NCBI GenBank assembly: GCA_000165345.1
Contig: CM000431.1
Coordinates: 544,001 to 608,000 of the forward strand
Direction of reading: 5' to 3'
Length of the DNA: 64,000 nucleotides
Part shown: piece by piece, positions 10,464 to 20,171 of the stretch
Layout: the number at the start of each line of letters is the position of its first letter
How positions within the stretch are numbered: position 1 is the first letter of the stretch
Notes under the pieces: generated by a model
Told to the model about the DNA's origin: nothing
Seen by the model: the letters and a program-made list of their open reading frames with translations, nothing else
Database searches by the model: none
Made by a program: the position numbers and the translations under genes

Positions 10464-11864
10464 CTAATGTTTGGACCTTTTATCTGGCGAGCCTTCTTCG
10501 CGGCTGTCTCCCGAAGGTTTCCTCTTACTTCCAACAATATCCATTGATGAATCGTAAGAACCTAGAGCTTTAGATTTGACAGGGCTATATGACGGGGTTG
10601 ATGGTTTTTTGTTCCCTCCTGTGGAGGAAAGGCGTCCTGAAGTTAATTGGTTGCTAAGTTCTTCCAATCTTCTCTCAACATATTGTTTATTTTCTATCGC
10701 TACAGTTGGTTCATTTTGATCATTAAGAGCATCAACGCGGATACATAATGATAACTTTGCTGCCAATATTCTGCTAATTTTACCCTTTAGTTTAGGTGCA
10801 GACTGCCCAACAACTGCCGCATGATATATGAGTCCATATTTTGGAGTGCTCTTCTTGGTCTTAAGAGCCCTAAATAAAGCCTTCTCTGCACCCAGAATTT
10901 GGACAGTACTAGAGGGATGTTTGGCAAGATTCATTAAACTGCCAGCATGAGAAATTAAACGGGCGCCAATAAGCTCTCCAACCATGTATGTAAGGTTTGG
11001 AGCGATTGTGGACATTCTCGTCTTTAAATATGTAGATAGTGACTCCCTATACTCTGAGAGCTCCAAAACACGGTCGCATAGTTCTATAATATTTTTTAAA
11101 TCCTCTTCAGTAATTTCTGTACCCATAGAAATCTCCGCAGCTTGTTTAATCTCAGCTTCCATTTCACTTGGAATATTACATGGTGGGGATTGCAAATTTG
11201 CATCACGAGTACAATGCCTAAAACCAATCACCTTGATGCAGTTTGCATACACATCACGGTCTGATATAATCTTTCCAAGTTCTGGGAAATGCCATCCGTA
11301 CCATTCTTTTAATCTCATTGCATAATTATTCAATTCACGATCTAAATCATCTAATAATGCTACAGCTTGAATAATCATTGTATCAATCTTCTCTGGACTA
11401 AACTTCAATTTAAATCGTCCTAGTGAGTGAGATAATGATAAAGCCATAGTTTTCATATCCTTTTCAGTTAATCCAGTAAGTAAGTCAGTTAATTGGTTTC
11501 TAATTCCCCTCATTACCTCCTGCATTTTAGGATTATAAACAACGTCAATTTCATACTTTTGCTTTATAAGACCCCCTAAAACCTTGTCTGCAACAGCTAG
11601 AGATTCTGATGCAGGGTTTGGAATGTTCTTCTTAATGAACTTGGATAAACCTTTACTTAACTTAGACTCAACCAAAGCTGTTGCCTCAACTAATGCTGAC
11701 TTTGTATCTTTGAACCTCAAAAAAGCTTCTAGAGAAACAGACTTCTGAACTTTATCTGGGTTCTGAAAGTACTCCGCAATTTCATCAGTATCCATACTCA
11801 GTAACTTTGAGTTTGTTACTCTAAACAGCCCATAGCCAGCCGGCGTTTCAAGGAGTACCAACAT
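10464..11864 (-). CDS. NOP58: Box C/D snoRNP protein NOP58 (NOP5/NOP56/NOP58 family)
   Basis: The N-terminus MLVLLETPAGYGLF, the NOP domain (WYGWHFPELGKII, AAEISMGTEI.EED, APNLT.MVGEL.GARLI.HAGSL.NLAK, LGAEKALFRALK, PKYGLIYHA) and the KKE/D-rich tail are all present. Confidence 0.9.
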   Translation of the reverse strand: MLVLLETPAGYGLFRVTNSKLLSMDTDEIAEYFQNPDKVQKSVSLEAFLRFKDTKSALVEATALVESKLSKGLSKFIKKNIPNPASESLAVADKVLGGLIKQKYEIDVVYNPKMQEVMRGIRNQLTDLLTGLTEKDMKTMALSLSHSLGRFKLKFSPEKIDTMIIQAVALLDDLDRELNNYAMRLKEWYGWHFPELGKIISDRDVYANCIKVIGFRHCTRDANLQSPPCNIPSEMEAEIKQAAEISMGTEITEEDLKNIIELCDRVLELSEYRESLSTYLKTRMSTIAPNLTYMVGELIGARLISHAGSLMNLAKHPSSTVQILGAEKALFRALKTKKSTPKYGLIYHAAVVGQSAPKLKGKISRILAAKLSLCIRVDALNDQNEPTVAIENKQYVERRLEELSNQLTSGRLSSTGGNKKPSTPSYSPVKSKALGSYDSSMDIVGSKRKPSGDSREEGSPDKRSKH

Positions 11865-12689: not shown

Positions 12690-15600
12690 CTATCCGCTTA
12701 ATTTGGGGTTTTCTGCTTCATTTAAATCTAAAATATGTTCATCGCTTTCAGCTATGGATTTTTTATTTTTATTCTTTATTCTTCTTAATAATTCAACAAA
12801 AACACTATCATTACAGCCATTTCCCAATACACGTTGGGGATCATGGAATAAATAAGAAGGTATATAACTTTTTGGTTGTATACGATGTAAAATCATATTT
12901 CTATTCATAACAATATTTCTTCTTTCTTTAACCTTCTGGAGTATGTTTCCTTCATCCATCTTCATCTGTGAATCAGTTGATACATTCTCCCTATCAATCT
13001 CGACCAATTTTTCATTTTCATCCATATTATCTGTATCTATTTTTGAGTTATTTGTATCCGATTTTCCTTTGATTTGAGAAATATACGTCTTTCTACGGTG
13101 TTTAACCCATAATATGCTCATTGTTGAACTAATACTTGATATTACCTCCTCTGTTAATAATCCTGCCTTTTTTGTATTTGGTACGCATCTATATTGGTAT
13201 AGACTTGGCTCAAAATAAAATAAATCATTTAAGTTACCTTTATATTTTTCTGGAATACGCAATATATCCAAATCCTTACAAAATTCCGGTAATAATGTCT
13301 TTTTCTTATCCATTACATTCTTTTGTTTTTTCTTTGCAGAAATGATTCCACCCCAATTATCTAACTTATGTCCAGTATCCAATTCATCTGTACTTAACGA
13401 AATTTTTTCAGATTTCCCTGCTTCTGTTTTTTTTAATGAAACTAATTCGAAACCGTATAATTCACTGTCATCTGTTATTACTGCAATTGAATTAACAGTA
13501 CATGCTACTTGTGTCAATATTTTCTTTTCCCATATACTATGCCTTACAATTGTTGGGCATTGAATTGCTTTATTTGAAATTGTAGATGAATTTTGCGATT
13601 TTAAGTTGATTTTACTTATACCAAAATTTTTCATTGCTGAATGTGATGAGTTACTACCCCCAGTTTGCTCATGAACAGTAAAGTTTCCCCATAAATACAT
13701 GATATTAAATCCATCTTCAACTGTAGCACACACAAAATCCGGCCCGGCACTAATTGATGAAATAGTAATTTTATTACCTGAAATCAATGTTAACAAACTT
13801 CTCCTTCTTACTTCTTTCTTCAGTTCTTCTGAATATTCAAGCTTTAATAAATCAGTCGTAGGCAACGGAAGTAATGTTGGCACTAATAAATGTCCTTTTT
13901 TACTCATGCCTAACTGGCCCTTGTCATTCCTTCCCCAAATAAATAGGTTCTGAGTACATATAATATTAAACCCATTTCCACATAAAATTTGTCTCACTCC
14001 TCCATTCTTGTTTCCTTCATTTTTATTGTTATACTCATCTTTTCCGATTTTTCCATTTTTTTTATCGTAATTTTTATTTGTACTTGATGAGTTATCAAAG
14101 TTGGGTAATTCTACCCTAAATGGCTCATAAAAATTGGCGTTACTACTTACAGTATCATACTCTGCCAAATGGCCATATAATGTTTTGAATCTATAATCCT
14201 CCAAGCATACATGAGTTCCTGCCCCCCACATAAAAACTGCACCATTTTGAGTAACTACACCACAGTGCCTTGCGCCAGCTGAAGCCATGTATACCTGTTC
14301 TTCTTTAAGTGGTTCAATCATCTTTGGACTCGGGATATATGAATAATTATGTCCATGGCCACATTGCCCAAATATGTTTTCGCCCCATGTGAATAGCTTT
14401 CCATCCGCTGTAATCGCCATTGAATGATCTGATCCGCATCCTACCCATCTAATTCTTCTTGTATAATCTATCTGTCTTATTAAATAACGAACAGTCTTCC
14501 CTGTTTTTTCATTCTTTGTATACCTATATTCAGAATCAATGAATCTTACAGGTTCCCTTATATTCGATGATACCAAGTCCATAACAGGAACTCCTAATTG
14601 GCCTTGATCATTAACACCCCAGGAATATACATGATTTCTATATTCAAAGTTCAATAGCTTTCCAGAAGTCTGTCCTAACAATGCACCACTATTTCCACTC
14701 TTTGAAAATTTATGATTGGATAAATCCTCGTTATCAAATGAATCAATTTCAATATTATCATCCCCTTGCCCTGCCAAAATTCGTTCTGCTATTAATACTA
14801 AGGTATGCCTTTGTCCTACTGAAAATTGCAATATTTTCAATGGTGGAAACTGTTTTGTTGGAGCAGTTTCAAATATTGCGCCGCATAATCTTCTACACAA
14901 AGTCACAAAACCTCTTCCCCATGTGCTTGGATAATAATCGCCAACATCTTTAACAATACTTAATTCTACAGGGTTTAAAAATACAGTATTGCTTTCAACA
15001 ATTTTTGCAAGTGGTTGGAATAACCCTTGCATACTTAATAACGGGTATCTCATCATATTAAATTGTTTTAATTCTCTTGAGATTAAATTATTCATTTCTA
15101 CTGATTTTTTTACCGGATCTTTTGGAATTTTCTTTTGTATCTTAAATTTACTTAGGGTTTTAATTAATGAGTTTCCTGAATCAATATGTTTCCTTAGTGT
15201 AAATGTAACTCTCCACCACTGCTGTAATAATGTTATTGACTTTATTGCCTTGAAATATCTATATACTTCCAAACATGTGTATGCTCTACATTGTACTACT
15301 TGAGCGGAAAAACGTAATTTGACATATTGTCTTCTGCACAAAGCCATACGAAAAACTCTTTGAATTATAATAGCTTTGTTTACAACCTCTCTATGAGCTC
15401 TAATTTGCTCTCTAAATACATGGCTTCTTCTTAAAGTTCCTCTATATTCGATATGCTTTGCAATTCCAAGTCTAATTAGTGACTTCCTTTTTAGAGCTAA
15501 AATACATCTTTTCAGCATAAATAATTTGCAGAATTTCTTTCTTACTAACCATCCACGGAACACTGCTTGAATCTTAACTGCTTTGAAATTGGGTGTTTTT

Positions 15601-18600
15601 GTAAATGCTAATTTTTCTACCAATAATGCTTGTGCTTTAAGCGTTCTCCATGCTGATTGTATTACTTGGATTGAGAACTCTCTAAATTCATTATAACGAT
15701 AAAGTGTAAGCCTTCGGCGAACCATTTCACCTCTCCACCAAGCTTGAATTGATGTTGCTGCAGAATTTCGAAAGAATTTCCTTTCATCTTCTCGTTGTTG
15801 CGCTAACTCTTCCAGTTTATCAAATATGGTAGATGTTTTAACCCATGGAATTGCTAAATGTATTAGTAATGCTAATCCACAAATAAATTGCCGATAAGGG
15901 AGTATTTTTCTCCATAAAATACAAACAAACCTCATCCTAATTAATGATTGTATTCTCACGCTCATCAATCTTAATTTAGAAATAAATAATCTTGGTTTTA
16001 AAGTTCTCCATGCATTTTGAAGAATAATAGATGCTGGCAACGCTTTTTTCAAATATTCTTCTCTTCTTCGTTCGAGAACTAATACCATCTTATTTCTTAG
16101 GAATAAATTTTGTGTTCCAATTAAATATTCGACTTCAGGTACTTCTAATCCATGCAGTAAAGTTCTTATCGAGTCCCTTAAATTTTGTTGGGATTTTAAC
16201 CTTTCTAAAATACCCTTTTTGTGTATTCTAGGGATATATATTTCACTAAATTTGAGCAAAAAGACTCTTAGTGGGATCTTTACCGTGAAACCATACTGCT
16301 GAAACAAGACCTGAGATGAAATATCATACATTTCCAAATCATTTGTTATTTTAGTTTCAGATATCTCTTCCTCAGTTTTTTTACCCAATTGATAACTACT
16401 TGCACAAACTGAAAAGAATAGTTTTCCTCTTCTTAACATTGAATCCACCATCTTGGTAGCTTTTAATGCAATTTGAGACATTGAAGGAGATCCTGGAATT
16501 GCGCTTAATCTTATCCAAGTTAAATCCATAAAATCTTCAGTTTTTTTCCAAAAATTTTCAAATTTTATTATTTCAGGATCCTCATCAATGGATAATCTAG
16601 CTTTCTTTTTTTGAGCTGTACCTTTGTAGATATTCTTTTCTTGCATATATTTTTCATCTGTTTCTAAAATGGTTGTCCAGCATGCGCGAATGATCTTATT
16701 ATTTGACTTTCTAAATAATTCATCGACCTTCTCTGGAACTTGATTCAGGTTATCCTCTTCTGCCATAGCTATCATGCTATAATTACAGTTCCCAAATGAA
16801 TGATTAATAGTAACTTCAGGAGGTAGATAATCTGGCAATTCGCCAGCCTGCTCATCCTCTACTAAAACGCTTGAATGCAAACTATTAGCAGCATAATCTA
16901 CCTCAAAATCATTAACTACTCCAGAAAATAAATCATTGCCCATTGAATCTGCTCGATTTCCACGCTTTGTTCTTATCTTCCTATACTTTCTTATTTTTTC
17001 AGAATTTGAATCGTGGTAATCTTTACAAATTTGTTTTTTTCTTTTTAGAAGTTCATTATATGGCTCTTCCTGAAACTTTGATTCTCCCTTAGTAATAAAT
17101 TCATCGTTTGCCTTAAGCAGTTCGTTTCCTGTGAATGAACGTACAAACTTAGAATAAATTGACTTTGATGGATCCAAATCTATTCTCCCAAATTCATCGC
17201 ACGGAGTAGGTTTGTGAAGCAACGATGACTCTGTTGGATCTTTTTGTATTTCTGAAATAAATTCCTCAACCCTTCTTTGTCTTTTTGAAGTAATTTTTAG
17301 CAAATTCATAAATCCTTTTTCTGGATCTTCAAACAAATCAGTAATTGAATCAATATCACTATAGTTTAGCTTAATCATATTGAGACCTTCAGATTCAAGT
17401 ATCTTTTTCTCCGAATCAAATATTTCGTGAATATAATTCTTTTTTAATTTTTCCTCACAATAATTTTGCATTGCATTCGAAAATGAGAAACCTTCTTTTA
17501 TAAATCCAGGGCCATGAATTATTGTGAATGACTCTAGTCCTAGTAAATTGGTAACAGCAGGACGAAGGTTTTCATTGCATATAAAAACAACCCAATCTAG
17601 TAATCTGCAGTATAGAGTAACTTGTAATTGCACAAATTCATAACATGTTACTATATTTGTCCTTAAATCTTCAATTTCAATCCCCAATAATCTTGCTAGC
17701 AATGGGAAAAAAACGATTTTAGAGTCATTAATTTCATTTATAGTTGAATTACATAATATTGATACATATGAGTCAATGACTACAATTGCAAATACTACCT
17801 TAAAAAAATCAATCTTTTGTGTATCGTTTAACCCTAGTGAATTTAACGATCCAACAGTCATTTTAAAACCGCGGAGTTGATCAATATAATTTGTGTTCAT
17901 ATCTGGAGAAACTTGAGTTAAATATAGCATTGTTTCATCATTTGATAATTTTAATGATTTTATCAAAGGATTATTACTGTCTAATATTAATCCATGTGCT
18001 AATTGGTAAAAAATTGAAAAAAAAGGACCAGTTCTTGACCAATATGATACTGGAGATGTGTTAAAAGACCACAAATGCAAGTGAGATCCCATTAAACATC
18101 CATCTGAAGCAACAAAAATTCTCCAAACTTGCCCACAATAGCTTTGGCCATAATGATAGAATTTATTATCGCCATTGTTACCTTCTCCAGGTGTTTGAAT
18201 AAAACTTCTAGCTATATGAACAATAGAAGCAATTTTCTCGGAAATTGCATAAGAGCTCTTTATATACTTATACAAACTGAGATTTTTTGCTAAAAACCTA
18301 ATTAACATATGCATATTAAAACATTTTCCAGTATTTTGCGCTCCCATGATAATTATTGTCTGGTCCTGGTGATTCTCTGCCCAACTAACCAATGCACGCC
18401 TCGCTAAAGAAAAAATGTGAGGTTCAAATTTTGTTTTCATTTCAGTCCAAAACCTCTGAATTTCCAAGCTGCTATACGCCTCCATTAGCCTTGGAATTTT
18501 TTCTACTCTTGGGAGGATGAAAATCAATAAATTCCCACTAAAAGTGTAGCAAAACCCAGCTGCGCACCTTTCGCCAAGCATATGTGAAATCCCATGAGGA

Positions 18601-18941
18601 GTACAAACATCAAGCAAAGATAAATCTGGGCTTTTAATCGGATTATCTATAATCAATCCTATCTTGTGTTTTGGATAACTTTTTATTGCAAATATACTTT
18701 TTGAATTAATCGAGCTGAATTCAACCATAGCATTTTCACCTAAATTTGCATCTCTTAAAAAACCTCGTTTAACGACTTCTATGTCATCATCTCTATTTTT
18801 TACCCAAACAGGAATTCCGAATGGAATAATTGACTCTTTTTGGTCATTTGAATCATTTCTTTCTCCCAATTTTTTTTTAATTTGAATATTTATTAATTTA
18901 TTTTTTTCTACCTCAAACTCATCACCTTTTTGAGAGTACAT
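12690..18941 (-). CDS. Unconventional myosin heavy chain with a divergent motor domain, about 6 IQ motifs and a C-terminal RCC1-repeat (beta-propeller) tail
   Basis: The N-terminus has the myosin SH3-like fold and the conserved head region (LSLLDVCTPHGISHMLGERCAAGFCYTFSGNLLIFILP ~ LNEASVLHNLRERY..IYTYSG.F). The P-loop position reads GAQNTGKC rather than GESGAGKT. The IQ motifs include IQAWWRGEMVRRR, IQSAWRTLKA, IQAVFRGWLVRKKF and IQRVFRMALCRRQY. Four or more RCC1 blades are visible (YSWGVNDQGQLG, FTWGENIFGQCGHG, FMWGAGTHV, FIWGRNDKGQLG). The ATG is at 18941; the track start at 18959 is a TTG. Confidence 0.7.
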   Translation of the reverse strand: MYSQKGDEFEVEKNKLINIQIKKKLGERNDSNDQKESIIPFGIPVWVKNRDDDIEVVKRGFLRDANLGENAMVEFSSINSKSIFAIKSYPKHKIGLIIDNPIKSPDLSLLDVCTPHGISHMLGERCAAGFCYTFSGNLLIFILPRVEKIPRLMEAYSSLEIQRFWTEMKTKFEPHIFSLARRALVSWAENHQDQTIIIMGAQNTGKCFNMHMLIRFLAKNLSLYKYIKSSYAISEKIASIVHIARSFIQTPGEGNNGDNKFYHYGQSYCGQVWRIFVASDGCLMGSHLHLWSFNTSPVSYWSRTGPFFSIFYQLAHGLILDSNNPLIKSLKLSNDETMLYLTQVSPDMNTNYIDQLRGFKMTVGSLNSLGLNDTQKIDFFKVVFAIVVIDSYVSILCNSTINEINDSKIVFFPLLARLLGIEIEDLRTNIVTCYEFVQLQVTLYCRLLDWVVFICNENLRPAVTNLLGLESFTIIHGPGFIKEGFSFSNAMQNYCEEKLKKNYIHEIFDSEKKILESEGLNMIKLNYSDIDSITDLFEDPEKGFMNLLKITSKRQRRVEEFISEIQKDPTESSLLHKPTPCDEFGRIDLDPSKSIYSKFVRSFTGNELLKANDEFITKGESKFQEEPYNELLKRKKQICKDYHDSNSEKIRKYRKIRTKRGNRADSMGNDLFSGVVNDFEVDYAANSLHSSVLVEDEQAGELPDYLPPEVTINHSFGNCNYSMIAMAEEDNLNQVPEKVDELFRKSNNKIIRACWTTILETDEKYMQEKNIYKGTAQKKKARLSIDEDPEIIKFENFWKKTEDFMDLTWIRLSAIPGSPSMSQIALKATKMVDSMLRRGKLFFSVCASSYQLGKKTEEEISETKITNDLEMYDISSQVLFQQYGFTVKIPLRVFLLKFSEIYIPRIHKKGILERLKSQQNLRDSIRTLLHGLEVPEVEYLIGTQNLFLRNKMVLVLERRREEYLKKALPASIILQNAWRTLKPRLFISKLRLMSVRIQSLIRMRFVCILWRKILPYRQFICGLALLIHLAIPWVKTSTIFDKLEELAQQREDERKFFRNSAATSIQAWWRGEMVRRRLTLYRYNEFREFSIQVIQSAWRTLKAQALLVEKLAFTKTPNFKAVKIQAVFRGWLVRKKFCKLFMLKRCILALKRKSLIRLGIAKHIEYRGTLRRSHVFREQIRAHREVVNKAIIIQRVFRMALCRRQYVKLRFSAQVVQCRAYTCLEVYRYFKAIKSITLLQQWWRVTFTLRKHIDSGNSLIKTLSKFKIQKKIPKDPVKKSVEMNNLISRELKQFNMMRYPLLSMQGLFQPLAKIVESNTVFLNPVELSIVKDVGDYYPSTWGRGFVTLCRRLCGAIFETAPTKQFPPLKILQFSVGQRHTLVLIAERILAGQGDDNIEIDSFDNEDLSNHKFSKSGNSGALLGQTSGKLLNFEYRNHVYSWGVNDQGQLGVPVMDLVSSNIREPVRFIDSEYRYTKNEKTGKTVRYLIRQIDYTRRIRWVGCGSDHSMAITADGKLFTWGENIFGQCGHGHNYSYIPSPKMIEPLKEEQVYMASAGARHCGVVTQNGAVFMWGAGTHVCLEDYRFKTLYGHLAEYDTVSSNANFYEPFRVELPNFDNSSSTNKNYDKKNGKIGKDEYNNKNEGNKNGGVRQILCGNGFNIICTQNLFIWGRNDKGQLGMSKKGHLLVPTLLPLPTTDLLKLEYSEELKKEVRRRSLLTLISGNKITISSISAGPDFVCATVEDGFNIMYLWGNFTVHEQTGGSNSSHSAMKNFGISKINLKSQNSSTISNKAIQCPTIVRHSIWEKKILTQVACTVNSIAVITDDSELYGFELVSLKKTEAGKSEKISLSTDELDTGHKLDNWGGIISAKKKQKNVMDKKKTLLPEFCKDLDILRIPEKYKGNLNDLFYFEPSLYQYRCVPNTKKAGLLTEEVISSISSTMSILWVKHRRKTYISQIKGKSDTNNSKIDTDNMDENEKLVEIDRENVSTDSQMKMDEGNILQKVKERRNIVMNRNMILHRIQPKSYIPSYLFHDPQRVLGNGCNDSVFVELLRRIKNKNKKSIAESDEHILDLNEAENPKLSG

Positions 18942-19196: not shown

Positions 19197-20171
19197 ATGA
19201 ATGTTAGACTAAATTTTTTGCTATATACTGCCGTATTAGTCTTTATATGCCTTACTAGCTCTTGCCAGTCGTATGAGTCGTTTGATCCAAGATCTCCTAA
19301 TGGGGGTGTTACTTTAAATGGATATATCCAAAAACCAGGGATTTTTTATTTCCTAAATGAGGAACTCCGTTGGAGAGATCGTGACTTTCCATTTTACAAT
19401 ATGTTAATGAGCACTGTTGCTACAACTTTTATTAATCTTATTAATCAAATTGAAAAGAATGAGGAAGGATTAATGCTTTATTATAGCAGGGAAGTAGCTA
19501 GACTTGCAAAAAAAGGGGAGGTGATTAATTCAATTTACAAGAGCTTTTTAACAGTTAAGGGCTCGAAACATGAACTAAAAATTTATGAAGAACAGTTCAA
19601 GCCTTTATGTAAAAGTTATAGAATTGAAATAGCAAAAAGTCCCATTATATCAATTGTTTCCCATTCGACATCCAGATTAAATGCTTATGATTATCTTATT
19701 CCATTTATTCCAAGTGAAGTTCTAGACCCGGTAATGAAAAAGTTTTCAATCGAAGTAACTAAGTTTTTGTGGCCTCAGTCTTTTGCCGAAATGTCCAATG
19801 TTTTTATCACTATGATAGAAAAATTGGAGAAACTATGCAAAAAAATCAACTTCAATCTGCTAGAATCATGTAATGAATATATGCAGCAGTCTAGAAGTTA
19901 CTTGATTGATCTCATTAAAAATCACGAGAAATTTTTAAAGTATTCAAAAACGAAAAATGCAAATTATTTGGAATTTTCTAATATCTTGAGAAAGCTACGC
20001 GGCGAAATACTTTCGTTCAAACCTTACCAGATTGTATTAAGGAAGTTAGATCCAGTTAAAGCAGATGCACTTGGGGTGCCCATGTTTTCTGGATTCAATC
20101 ACAGCATACTTGATGAAACAATGAAAGAATACTATGAAATATTAAGAGATCGAAGGTTAAAGAACAAATAA
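19197..20171 (+). CDS. Hypothetical secreted protein with an N-terminal signal peptide, 324 aa
   Basis: It begins with the hydrophobic leader MNVRLNFLLYTAVLVFICLTSSC and has no recognisable domain. It sits convergent with the next gene. Confidence 0.45.
   Translation: MNVRLNFLLYTAVLVFICLTSSCQSYESFDPRSPNGGVTLNGYIQKPGIFYFLNEELRWRDRDFPFYNMLMSTVATTFINLINQIEKNEEGLMLYYSREVARLAKKGEVINSIYKSFLTVKGSKHELKIYEEQFKPLCKSYRIEIAKSPIISIVSHSTSRLNAYDYLIPFIPSEVLDPVMKKFSIEVTKFLWPQSFAEMSNVFITMIEKLEKLCKKINFNLLESCNEYMQQSRSYLIDLIKNHEKFLKYSKTKNANYLEFSNILRKLRGEILSFKPYQIVLRKLDPVKADALGVPMFSGFNHSILDETMKEYYEILRDRRLKNK

Follow-up and report, generated by a model that had tools for sequence, protein, structure and literature searches.

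Does the long myosin-like gene in this part of the Cryptosporidium parvum genome encode a motor, or a protein built from one? The window is a 64,000-nucleotide stretch of GenBank assembly GCA_000165345.1 (contig CM000431.1, positions 544,001 to 608,000, forward strand), and the gene occupies positions 12690 to 18941 of it on the minus strand. A model that saw the letters without database searches (the sequence-only reading) took the product for a myosin with a degenerate ATP site, fused to IQ motifs and an RCC1 propeller. We find a known kind of protein and a member of a known family. The gene is probably the C. parvum orthologue of Toxoplasma gondii myosin L (MyoL), a myosin-derived pseudo-motor that, by orthology with the Toxoplasma protein, would serve as a static tether at the preconoidal rings. 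The pseudo-myosin scaffold is therefore supported, yet it is already published for the Toxoplasma orthologue, with Cryptosporidium named as a carrier.

The open reading frame (ORF) runs uninterrupted for 2083 codons counted from the first ATG. A chance origin of a frame of this length is excluded because the G+C content of the window, about 32%, makes random stops frequent. If TTG is allowed as a start, as under bacterial rules, the ORF gains six codons at its 5' end and reaches 18959. Its product is 100% identical to the annotated C. parvum protein EAK89094.1 (CPATCC_001210, P0001), which public annotation describes as 'myosin fused to 3 IQ motifs and Rcc1 domain', and this bears out Cryptosporidium as the organism that the sequence-only reading had in mind. 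The homology search returned full-length orthologues from eight further Cryptosporidium species clusters at 88-51% identity. On the basis of the ORF, this identity and the synteny given below, the gene is entered as follows:

12690 to 18941, minus strand: complete intron-less coding sequence, 2083 amino acids (aa) plus stop, of the probable C. parvum MyoL orthologue.

The N-terminal half is homologous to myosin over the whole motor domain by Pfam, hhalign and Foldseek, and an IQ neck follows the converter as in the myosin superfamily. Pfam places Myosin_head (PF00063) at aa 106-645 with 120 bits (cut-off 33.3). A profile of the nine Cryptosporidium heads aligned to canonical myosin heads with an hhalign probability of 99.2% (query 39-997, template 37-839), spanning the SH3-like start at aa 39 to the first IQ motif at aa 997. 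The AlphaFold2 (AF2) model of the head has a mean predicted local distance difference test score (pLDDT) of 48 and that of the tail 46, and both were used for secondary structure and fold class alone, not for residue geometry. The top 50 Foldseek matches to the head model were myosin motors throughout (E about 1e-19). The parts given below include the ratio of nonsynonymous to synonymous substitution rates (dN/dS) and alignments to T. gondii MyoL (TgMyoL):

18642 to 18827, minus strand: SH3-like N-terminal subdomain, aa 39-100 (hhalign to non-muscle myosin II; predicted beta strands at aa 44-96).

16062 to 18641, minus strand: degenerate myosin head including the converter, aa 101-960 (Pfam, hhalign and Foldseek; dN/dS 0.06-0.09).

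16827 to 17279, minus strand: large insertion at about aa 555-705, within the lower-50K region and specific to the lineage (hhalign gap; pLDDT below 50; poorly conserved).

16062 to 16331, minus strand: converter, aa 871-960, reading GFTVKIPLRVF against GFPNRIPFQEF (hhalign; TgMyoL alignment from aa 874; dN/dS about 0.03).

The SH3-like start that had been read from the letters is consistent with the hhalign span and the predicted strands. The topology of the head is complete, with this start, a P-loop strand and helix, a relay helix, an HYAG strand and a converter. The relay helix is predicted at aa 487-517, after switch II, from the AF2 secondary structure, and the HYAG strand is retained as INHSFGNCNY (aa 712-721, hhalign). 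Two large insertions relative to canonical myosins fall at about aa 555-705 and aa 786-820 (hhalign), the first having the lowest conservation and a dN/dS of 0.10-0.13.

The ATP site within this fold is not that of a canonical myosin:

18321 to 18344, minus strand: P-loop, G200-AQNTGK-C207 against GESGAGKT, with Gly and Lys kept and Thr replaced by Cys (every aligner used).

18129 to 18179, minus strand: switch I region, aa 255-271, HYGQSYCGQ (profile register) or NNGDNKFYH (phmmer register) against NDNSSRFGK.

17499 to 17516, minus strand: true switch II, H476-GPGF-I481 against DIxGFE, with Asp replaced by His and Glu by Ile and with Gly and Phe kept (hmmalign).

17757 to 17783, minus strand: VVIDSYVSI, aa 387-395, at the position of the HLGN helix (phmmer to myosin VI, over VLHLGNIDF).

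The P-loop had been called correctly by the sequence-only reading, as GAQNTGKC stands in place of GESGAGKT in all alignments. The canonical motif is thus absent from the head while GxxxxGK is retained, and MG-x4-GKC is invariant across the 9 Cryptosporidium species clusters. C. andersoni reads GTEGAGKC, which is very near GESGAGKT. For a Cys at the Walker-A Thr/Ser position (GKC), structural conservation is the sole explanation offered.

Switch I likewise lacks the canonical NxNSSRFGK. MAFFT, hmmalign and hhalign agree in placing NDNSSRFGK over H263-YGQSYCGQ-271, where S267 and G270 are kept, Arg is replaced by Tyr and Lys by Gln. The same register coincides with a block conserved in the genus, [YF]G.S..GQ[VI]WRI. 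The register first proposed, NNGDNKFYHYG, is doubtful, as it was recovered only by pairwise phmmer against myosin VI, with the profile register lying about 8 residues downstream. The exact register is uncertain, but the Arg is lost in both and the proposal of a non-canonical switch I stands. For switch II the sequence-only reading had chosen VVIDSYVSI, which proved to be mis-registered onto the HLGN helix; the real element, HGPGFI, is nevertheless degenerate too and does not match DIxGFE. Here the MAFFT block was offset and hhalign introduced a gap, and the position was settled by hmmalign to the canonical-head HMM together with the GF anchor. Both H.PG of switch II and the HSFG strand are invariant within the genus. 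As that reading had suggested looking for, the orthologues share the substitutions, with the GKC P-loop and H.PG the same in all nine species. The purine-loop Asn is also gone (ILPR against VNPY).

With positions read off the alignments, no GESGAGKT, SSRFGK or DIxGFE was found elsewhere in the C. parvum protein. The sequence-only reading had named misplaced motifs as the way in which it could be wrong. The ATP site is genuinely degenerate because no canonical motifs lie elsewhere in the protein. With the canonical myosins VI, II and I the protein shares sequence or profile homology over the whole motor as well as local fold matches. It differs from them in the change of Thr to Cys, SSRFGK to QSYCGQ and DIxGFE to HGPGFI, in the lost purine-loop Asn and in the two large insertions.

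Hydrolysis in myosins depends on a salt bridge between Arg of switch I and Glu of switch II. The P-loop Thr and the switch I Ser coordinate magnesium and are likewise required. Three of these four residues (Arg, Glu and the P-loop Thr) are lost, and a working ATPase cycle is therefore unlikely. We infer from the residues present that the C. parvum head is unable to run an actin-activated ATPase cycle. The earlier proposal of an ATPase-impaired pseudo-myosin is borne out to this extent: all three nucleotide-sensing elements are degenerate, and the relative TgMyoL has been published as having a 'non-functional head' (Haase et al., bioRxiv 10.64898/2026.01.06.697858).

The nearest relative across the converter, neck, linker and RCC1 region is TgMyoL. 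By a wide margin, the best match among solved structures was T. gondii myosin L (TGME49_291020, PDB 9YA0 chain NA, E 4.8e-103). This chain (9ya0_NA) matches the C. parvum protein with 297 bits over the converter, neck, linker and first propeller blades. The C. parvum head alone matches it at 12.6 bits, against 45-78 bits for the best stretch with ordinary myosins. These scores suggest that the C. parvum and T. gondii heads drifted independently once activity was lost. The two proteins belong to a common pan-apicomplexan orthogroup and are alike in having a head, an IQ neck, an RCC1-like tail with insertions between its blades and a divergent ATP site, although confidence in the tail model is modest. 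They differ in length, the C. parvum protein having 2083 aa and TgMyoL 2484 aa, and the former is without the N-terminal extension of about 500 aa. The C. parvum head is also more myosin-like than that of the TgMyoL clade, with a Pfam score of 120 bits against 95 for the Neospora representative, and it keeps GxxxxGK where Toxoplasma and Neospora read GELDAAQD.

Recovering the MyoL family required an exhaustive HMMER search with the neck. A word-indexed homology search returned the Cryptosporidium orthologues, generic RCC1 proteins and class II myosins and missed TgMyoL. The HMMER search used the converter, neck and linker (aa 871-1450) against 1.84 billion representative proteins and gave 39 proteins. 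Those that matched in a single stretch carry IQ and RCC1 domains, and they came from Neospora, Plasmodium, Babesia and Theileria, along with two proteins from Logan assemblies. The top match outside Cryptosporidium was Neospora NCLIV_042890. The 38 neck homologues from outside Cryptosporidium all lack the canonical forms of P-loop, switch I and switch II. As the neck homologues lack the motifs throughout, the neck defines a family of its own and is not common to an active motor such as MyoH.

This result bears on whether the gene could instead be the Cryptosporidium orthologue of MyoH, an active class XIV conoid motor. T. gondii MyoH (TGME49_243250) shares the domain order of the C. parvum protein, with a head, a multi-IQ neck and an RCC1/ATS1 tail, has an apical-complex role, and is anchored by its tail to conoid tubulin according to the literature, where head-based phylogeny has also reported MyoH homologues in Cryptosporidium. 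However, MyoH is an active ATPase that retains actin binding, and the C. parvum protein has neither the catalytic residues nor a functional ATPase motif. The C. parvum neck has no detectable similarity to any canonical-motif myosin: no protein with such motifs is among the 39 neck homologues from the 1.84 billion proteins, and the top PDB match is MyoL. We consider a MyoH orthologue extremely improbable and rejected it on the neck homologues that lack canonical motifs.

The non-canonical ATP site holds in all members of the MyoL family, and its state differs by lineage:

Cryptosporidium: P-loop GAQNTGKC; switch I QSYCGQ; switch II HGPGFI.

P0025, one of the two Logan proteins: P-loop GPSGAGRA; switch I TSSFVG; switch II YAPGFT.

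Neospora: P-loop GELDAAQD; no recognisable switch I; switch II ASTGLD.

At the P-loop position Toxoplasma reads GELDAAQD as Neospora does. The N-terminal half of P0025 was read from the hmmsearch alignment, as hmmalign did not place it. None of the three lineages retains the Arg of switch I, the Asp of switch II or its Glu. Since the same catalytic residues are absent from each, the motifs suggest that hydrolysis may have been lost early with independent erosion afterwards, a sequence of events drawn from three lineages and no reconstructed history. Pfam head scores fall from 120 bits in Cryptosporidium to 95 in Neospora, 78 in P0025 and 24 in one Babesia. No Pfam myosin head rose above threshold in the Plasmodium, Theileria and other Babesia orthologues, with P0038 left out of the scan. 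By these comparisons the Cryptosporidium head is the least decayed of the MyoL family.

P0025 is encoded at positions 1678-7599 of contig L003, from Logan run SRR26360272; the contig is 56% GC and the gene is intron-less. It pairs with the other Logan protein, P0027, and the two are roughly equidistant from Cryptosporidium and Neospora. The Plasmodium proteins P0028, P0032 and P0035 and the piroplasm proteins P0030, P0033, P0037 and P0038 carry the labels 'cell cycle associated protein' or 'IQ calmodulin-binding'. Routine annotation thus misses the myosin ancestry of the MyoL orthologues of blood parasites.

Beyond the converter the C. parvum protein continues with these parts:

15072 to 16061, minus strand: long neck (lever arm), aa 961-1290, holding seven IQ-like cores (three Pfam IQ matches; regex scan; strongest similarity to TgMyoL).

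14862 to 15071, minus strand: linker from neck to propeller, aa 1291-1360, highly conserved (71% invariant in 9 species; dN/dS 0.012-0.03; TgMyoL alignment).

13092 to 14861, minus strand: RCC1-like beta-propeller, about aa 1361-1950 (Pfam RCC1, RCC1_2 and WD40_RLD; Foldseek).

12693 to 13091, minus strand: C-terminal extension, aa 1951-2083 (low conservation; pLDDT about 20-30).

The IQ motifs and RCC1 propeller tail of the sequence-only reading agree with Pfam and Foldseek. The regex scan placed IQ-like cores at aa 974, 997, 1065, 1094, 1124, 1193 and 1239, two of the seven matching the strict IQxxxRGxxxR. Four are reported for TgMyoL (bioRxiv 10.64898/2026.01.06.697858). The cores lie at 15159-16022 on the minus strand within a 330-aa neck, where the public annotation counts '3 IQ motifs'. 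With seven cores and not three, the neck may load more light chains than annotated.

The tail folds as a seven-bladed propeller by Foldseek, with TM(target) of 0.55-0.62 to complete seven-bladed RLDs. In its AF2 model the blades reach a pLDDT of 70-87 and are separated by long, low-complexity, gap-rich insertions of low pLDDT. The fold and the RCC1 repeat signatures are common to UVR8, the HERC2 RLDs, RPGR and WBSCR16. The C. parvum propeller differs from these generic RLDs in being fused to a myosin-like head and neck and in its long low-complexity insertions between blades. An RCC1-like fold is also what the sequence-only reading had taken as a hint of binding to Ran, other GTPases or chromatin, and the Plasmodium orthologues are automatically named 'cell cycle associated protein'. 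On that view the propeller would be a guanine-nucleotide exchange factor (GEF) for a small GTPase such as Ran, would simply bind such a GTPase, or would bind chromatin. The nearest structures are, however, the non-GEF RLDs of UVR8, WBSCR16, RPGR and HERC2, with RCC1 ranking 27th or lower in Foldseek, and in the sequence search RCC2 (5.9e-20) also ranked below those RLDs. In Toxoplasma the MyoL neck-tail targets apical rings and the RCC1 tail of MyoH binds conoid tubulin, and there is no sign of nuclear localisation. This function found no support and we hold it to be highly improbable; a Ran-GEF tail was rejected on the Foldseek ranking and the targeting of the Toxoplasma neck-tail.

We also compared constraint along the protein. 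The fraction of invariant positions among the nine species is 0.58 in the neck, 0.71 in the linker, 0.44 in the propeller and 0.33 in the head core. The comparison of C. parvum with C. ubiquitum gives dN/dS values of 0.028 in the neck, 0.030 in the linker, 0.067 in the propeller and 0.087 in the head core. This pair carries the weight because dS is near or at saturation when C. canis is compared (NaN for the converter). Over the comparisons dN/dS ranges from 0.015 to 0.03 in the neck, 0.012 to 0.03 in the linker and 0.06 to 0.09 in the head. Constraint is strongest in the neck with its IQ motifs, in the linker and in the RCC1-like propeller, and neck and linker stand above the head, opposite to the order of an active motor. 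The head is nonetheless under purifying selection (dN/dS 0.06-0.09) and essentially free of indels, its best-conserved segment being that of the P-loop and P-loop helix. Selection of this kind is not easily squared with a head that cultured Toxoplasma can do without.

The conserved head leaves room for two further views of its biochemistry. One, which Zeng et al. (PMC12819142) suggest for TgMyoL, is that the protein is still a working motor, though a highly divergent one, and translocates actin at the preconoidal ring. We think this very unlikely, as the salt-bridge Arg and Glu are replaced along with Asp of switch II and Thr of the P-loop, the head is dispensable in Toxoplasma, and it is the fastest-evolving folded domain, being unrecognisable in Plasmodium and most piroplasm orthologues. 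Consistent with a motor are the complete topology, from which neither the relay helix nor the converter nor the lever arm is missing, the position of the head beside the formin in the Toxoplasma P2 ring (PMC12819142) and the requirement of TgMyoL for the myosin chaperone UNC (bioRxiv 10.64898/2026.01.06.697858).

The other view is that the head binds nucleotide and hydrolyses it very slowly or not at all, the P-loop holding ATP or ADP in the role of a cofactor, whether structural or allosteric. The head might then lock onto F-actin or a ring partner, making the protein a nucleotide-gated static clamp and not an inert scaffold. All 9 species keep G200, G205, K206 and C207, C. andersoni has its GTEGAGKC, the segment of the P-loop and its helix tops head conservation, S267 of switch I and G479 of switch II are kept, and the dN/dS of the head is low. 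On the other side, the purine-loop Asn is missing, Cys replaces the Mg-coordinating Thr, switch I has lost its Arg, and switch II has lost both its Asp and its Glu. The P-loop Lys has also been lost in other MyoL lineages (GPSGAGRA, GELDAAQD), and nucleotide binding is therefore no requirement of the family. Conservation of the head may also just mirror its folding core. Weighing these, we regard a clamp as unlikely. A related proposal, to which we would attach a similarly low probability, is that Cryptosporidium MyoL is an evolutionary intermediate whose head, in contrast to that of Toxoplasma, still binds nucleotide and perhaps F-actin by means of the invariant G-x4-GKC P-loop and is needed, to judge by purifying selection, the protein acting as a nucleotide-gated static clamp on actin or the ring where the formin launches filaments. 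If this were true, the family as a whole would document how a motor became a structural subunit of the ring, step by step and independently of lineage.

The passive tether remains the reading we prefer, and its functional part comes from Toxoplasma. TgMyoL lies at the outer rim of preconoidal ring P2, where its neck binds the EF-hand proteins CAM1, CAM4 and MLC4, and depletion of MyoL blocks Toxoplasma growth and invasion (Zeng et al., PMC12819142). When TgMyoL is depleted, the preconoidal rings come away in part from the conoid and gliding is impaired, and the TgMyoL neck-tail alone restores localisation and function, the head being dispensable (bioRxiv 10.64898/2026.01.06.697858). MyoL orthologues were noted in Cryptosporidium and Plasmodium in the same work (Haase et al.), and a BLAST-based table of conservation lists both MyoL and CAM4 for C. 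parvum (Zeng et al., PMC12819142). By orthology, the C. parvum neck would take up EF-hand light chains of CAM4-like and calmodulin-like types. Neck and RCC1-like tail together would direct the protein to the preconoidal rings and dock it between the rings and the tip of the conoid. MyoL would there be a passive mechanical tether of rings to conoid, holding the formin-bearing ring in position so that F-actin could be supplied to gliding motility and invasion. The head would be a structural subunit of the ring and no engine. The proposal of a scaffold that recruits calmodulin-like light chains thus gains support through TgMyoL, a preconoidal-ring tether that binds three such proteins.

Several points weigh against a passive tether. 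Neither CAM1 nor MLC4 is listed as conserved in C. parvum, and Zeng et al. consider MyoL a possible extra actin-translocation step, that is, a motor (PMC12819142). Our literature search for experiments on the Cryptosporidium protein (localisation, knock-down or ATPase) found nothing, and an ATPase measurement is unreported for any MyoL. The head is held by purifying selection without indels and keeps an invariant G-x4-GK, Ser267 and Gly479; a head conserved in this way does something. Transfer of head function from TgMyoL is weak because the two heads match at 12.6 bits, and both AF2 models are of low confidence.

On one side of the gene lies a Nop5/Nop58 gene (10464-11864, minus strand) and on the other a 324-aa ORF (19197-20171, plus strand) that has no Pfam match on record. 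Both flanking genes also adjoin the orthologues in C. ubiquitum and C. canis (L001 and L002), a conserved synteny. Further along, a single 8251-codon ORF at 25383-50138 on the plus strand encodes a multi-modular type I fatty-acid/polyketide synthase. Its modules are an AMP-ligase loading unit with an ACP, three KS-AT-DH-ER-KR-ACP modules and a terminal NAD-binding reductase. We take it to be the published C. parvum CpFAS1, and it looks like an ordinary and known gene.

What the locus adds to the MyoL family is modest: the least-decayed head, a G-x4-GKC invariant in the genus, purifying selection on the head and residue losses specific to lineages. These are relevant to the evolution of a scaffold from a motor and leave the overall picture unchanged. 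In any list of C. parvum myosin ATPases that drugs might target, this gene should be left out. Toxoplasma needs MyoL to glide and invade, and the protein adjoins the formin that launches the actin of motility; a clear orthologue in Cryptosporidium helps to carry the preconoidal-ring model over to a parasite that is hard to study.

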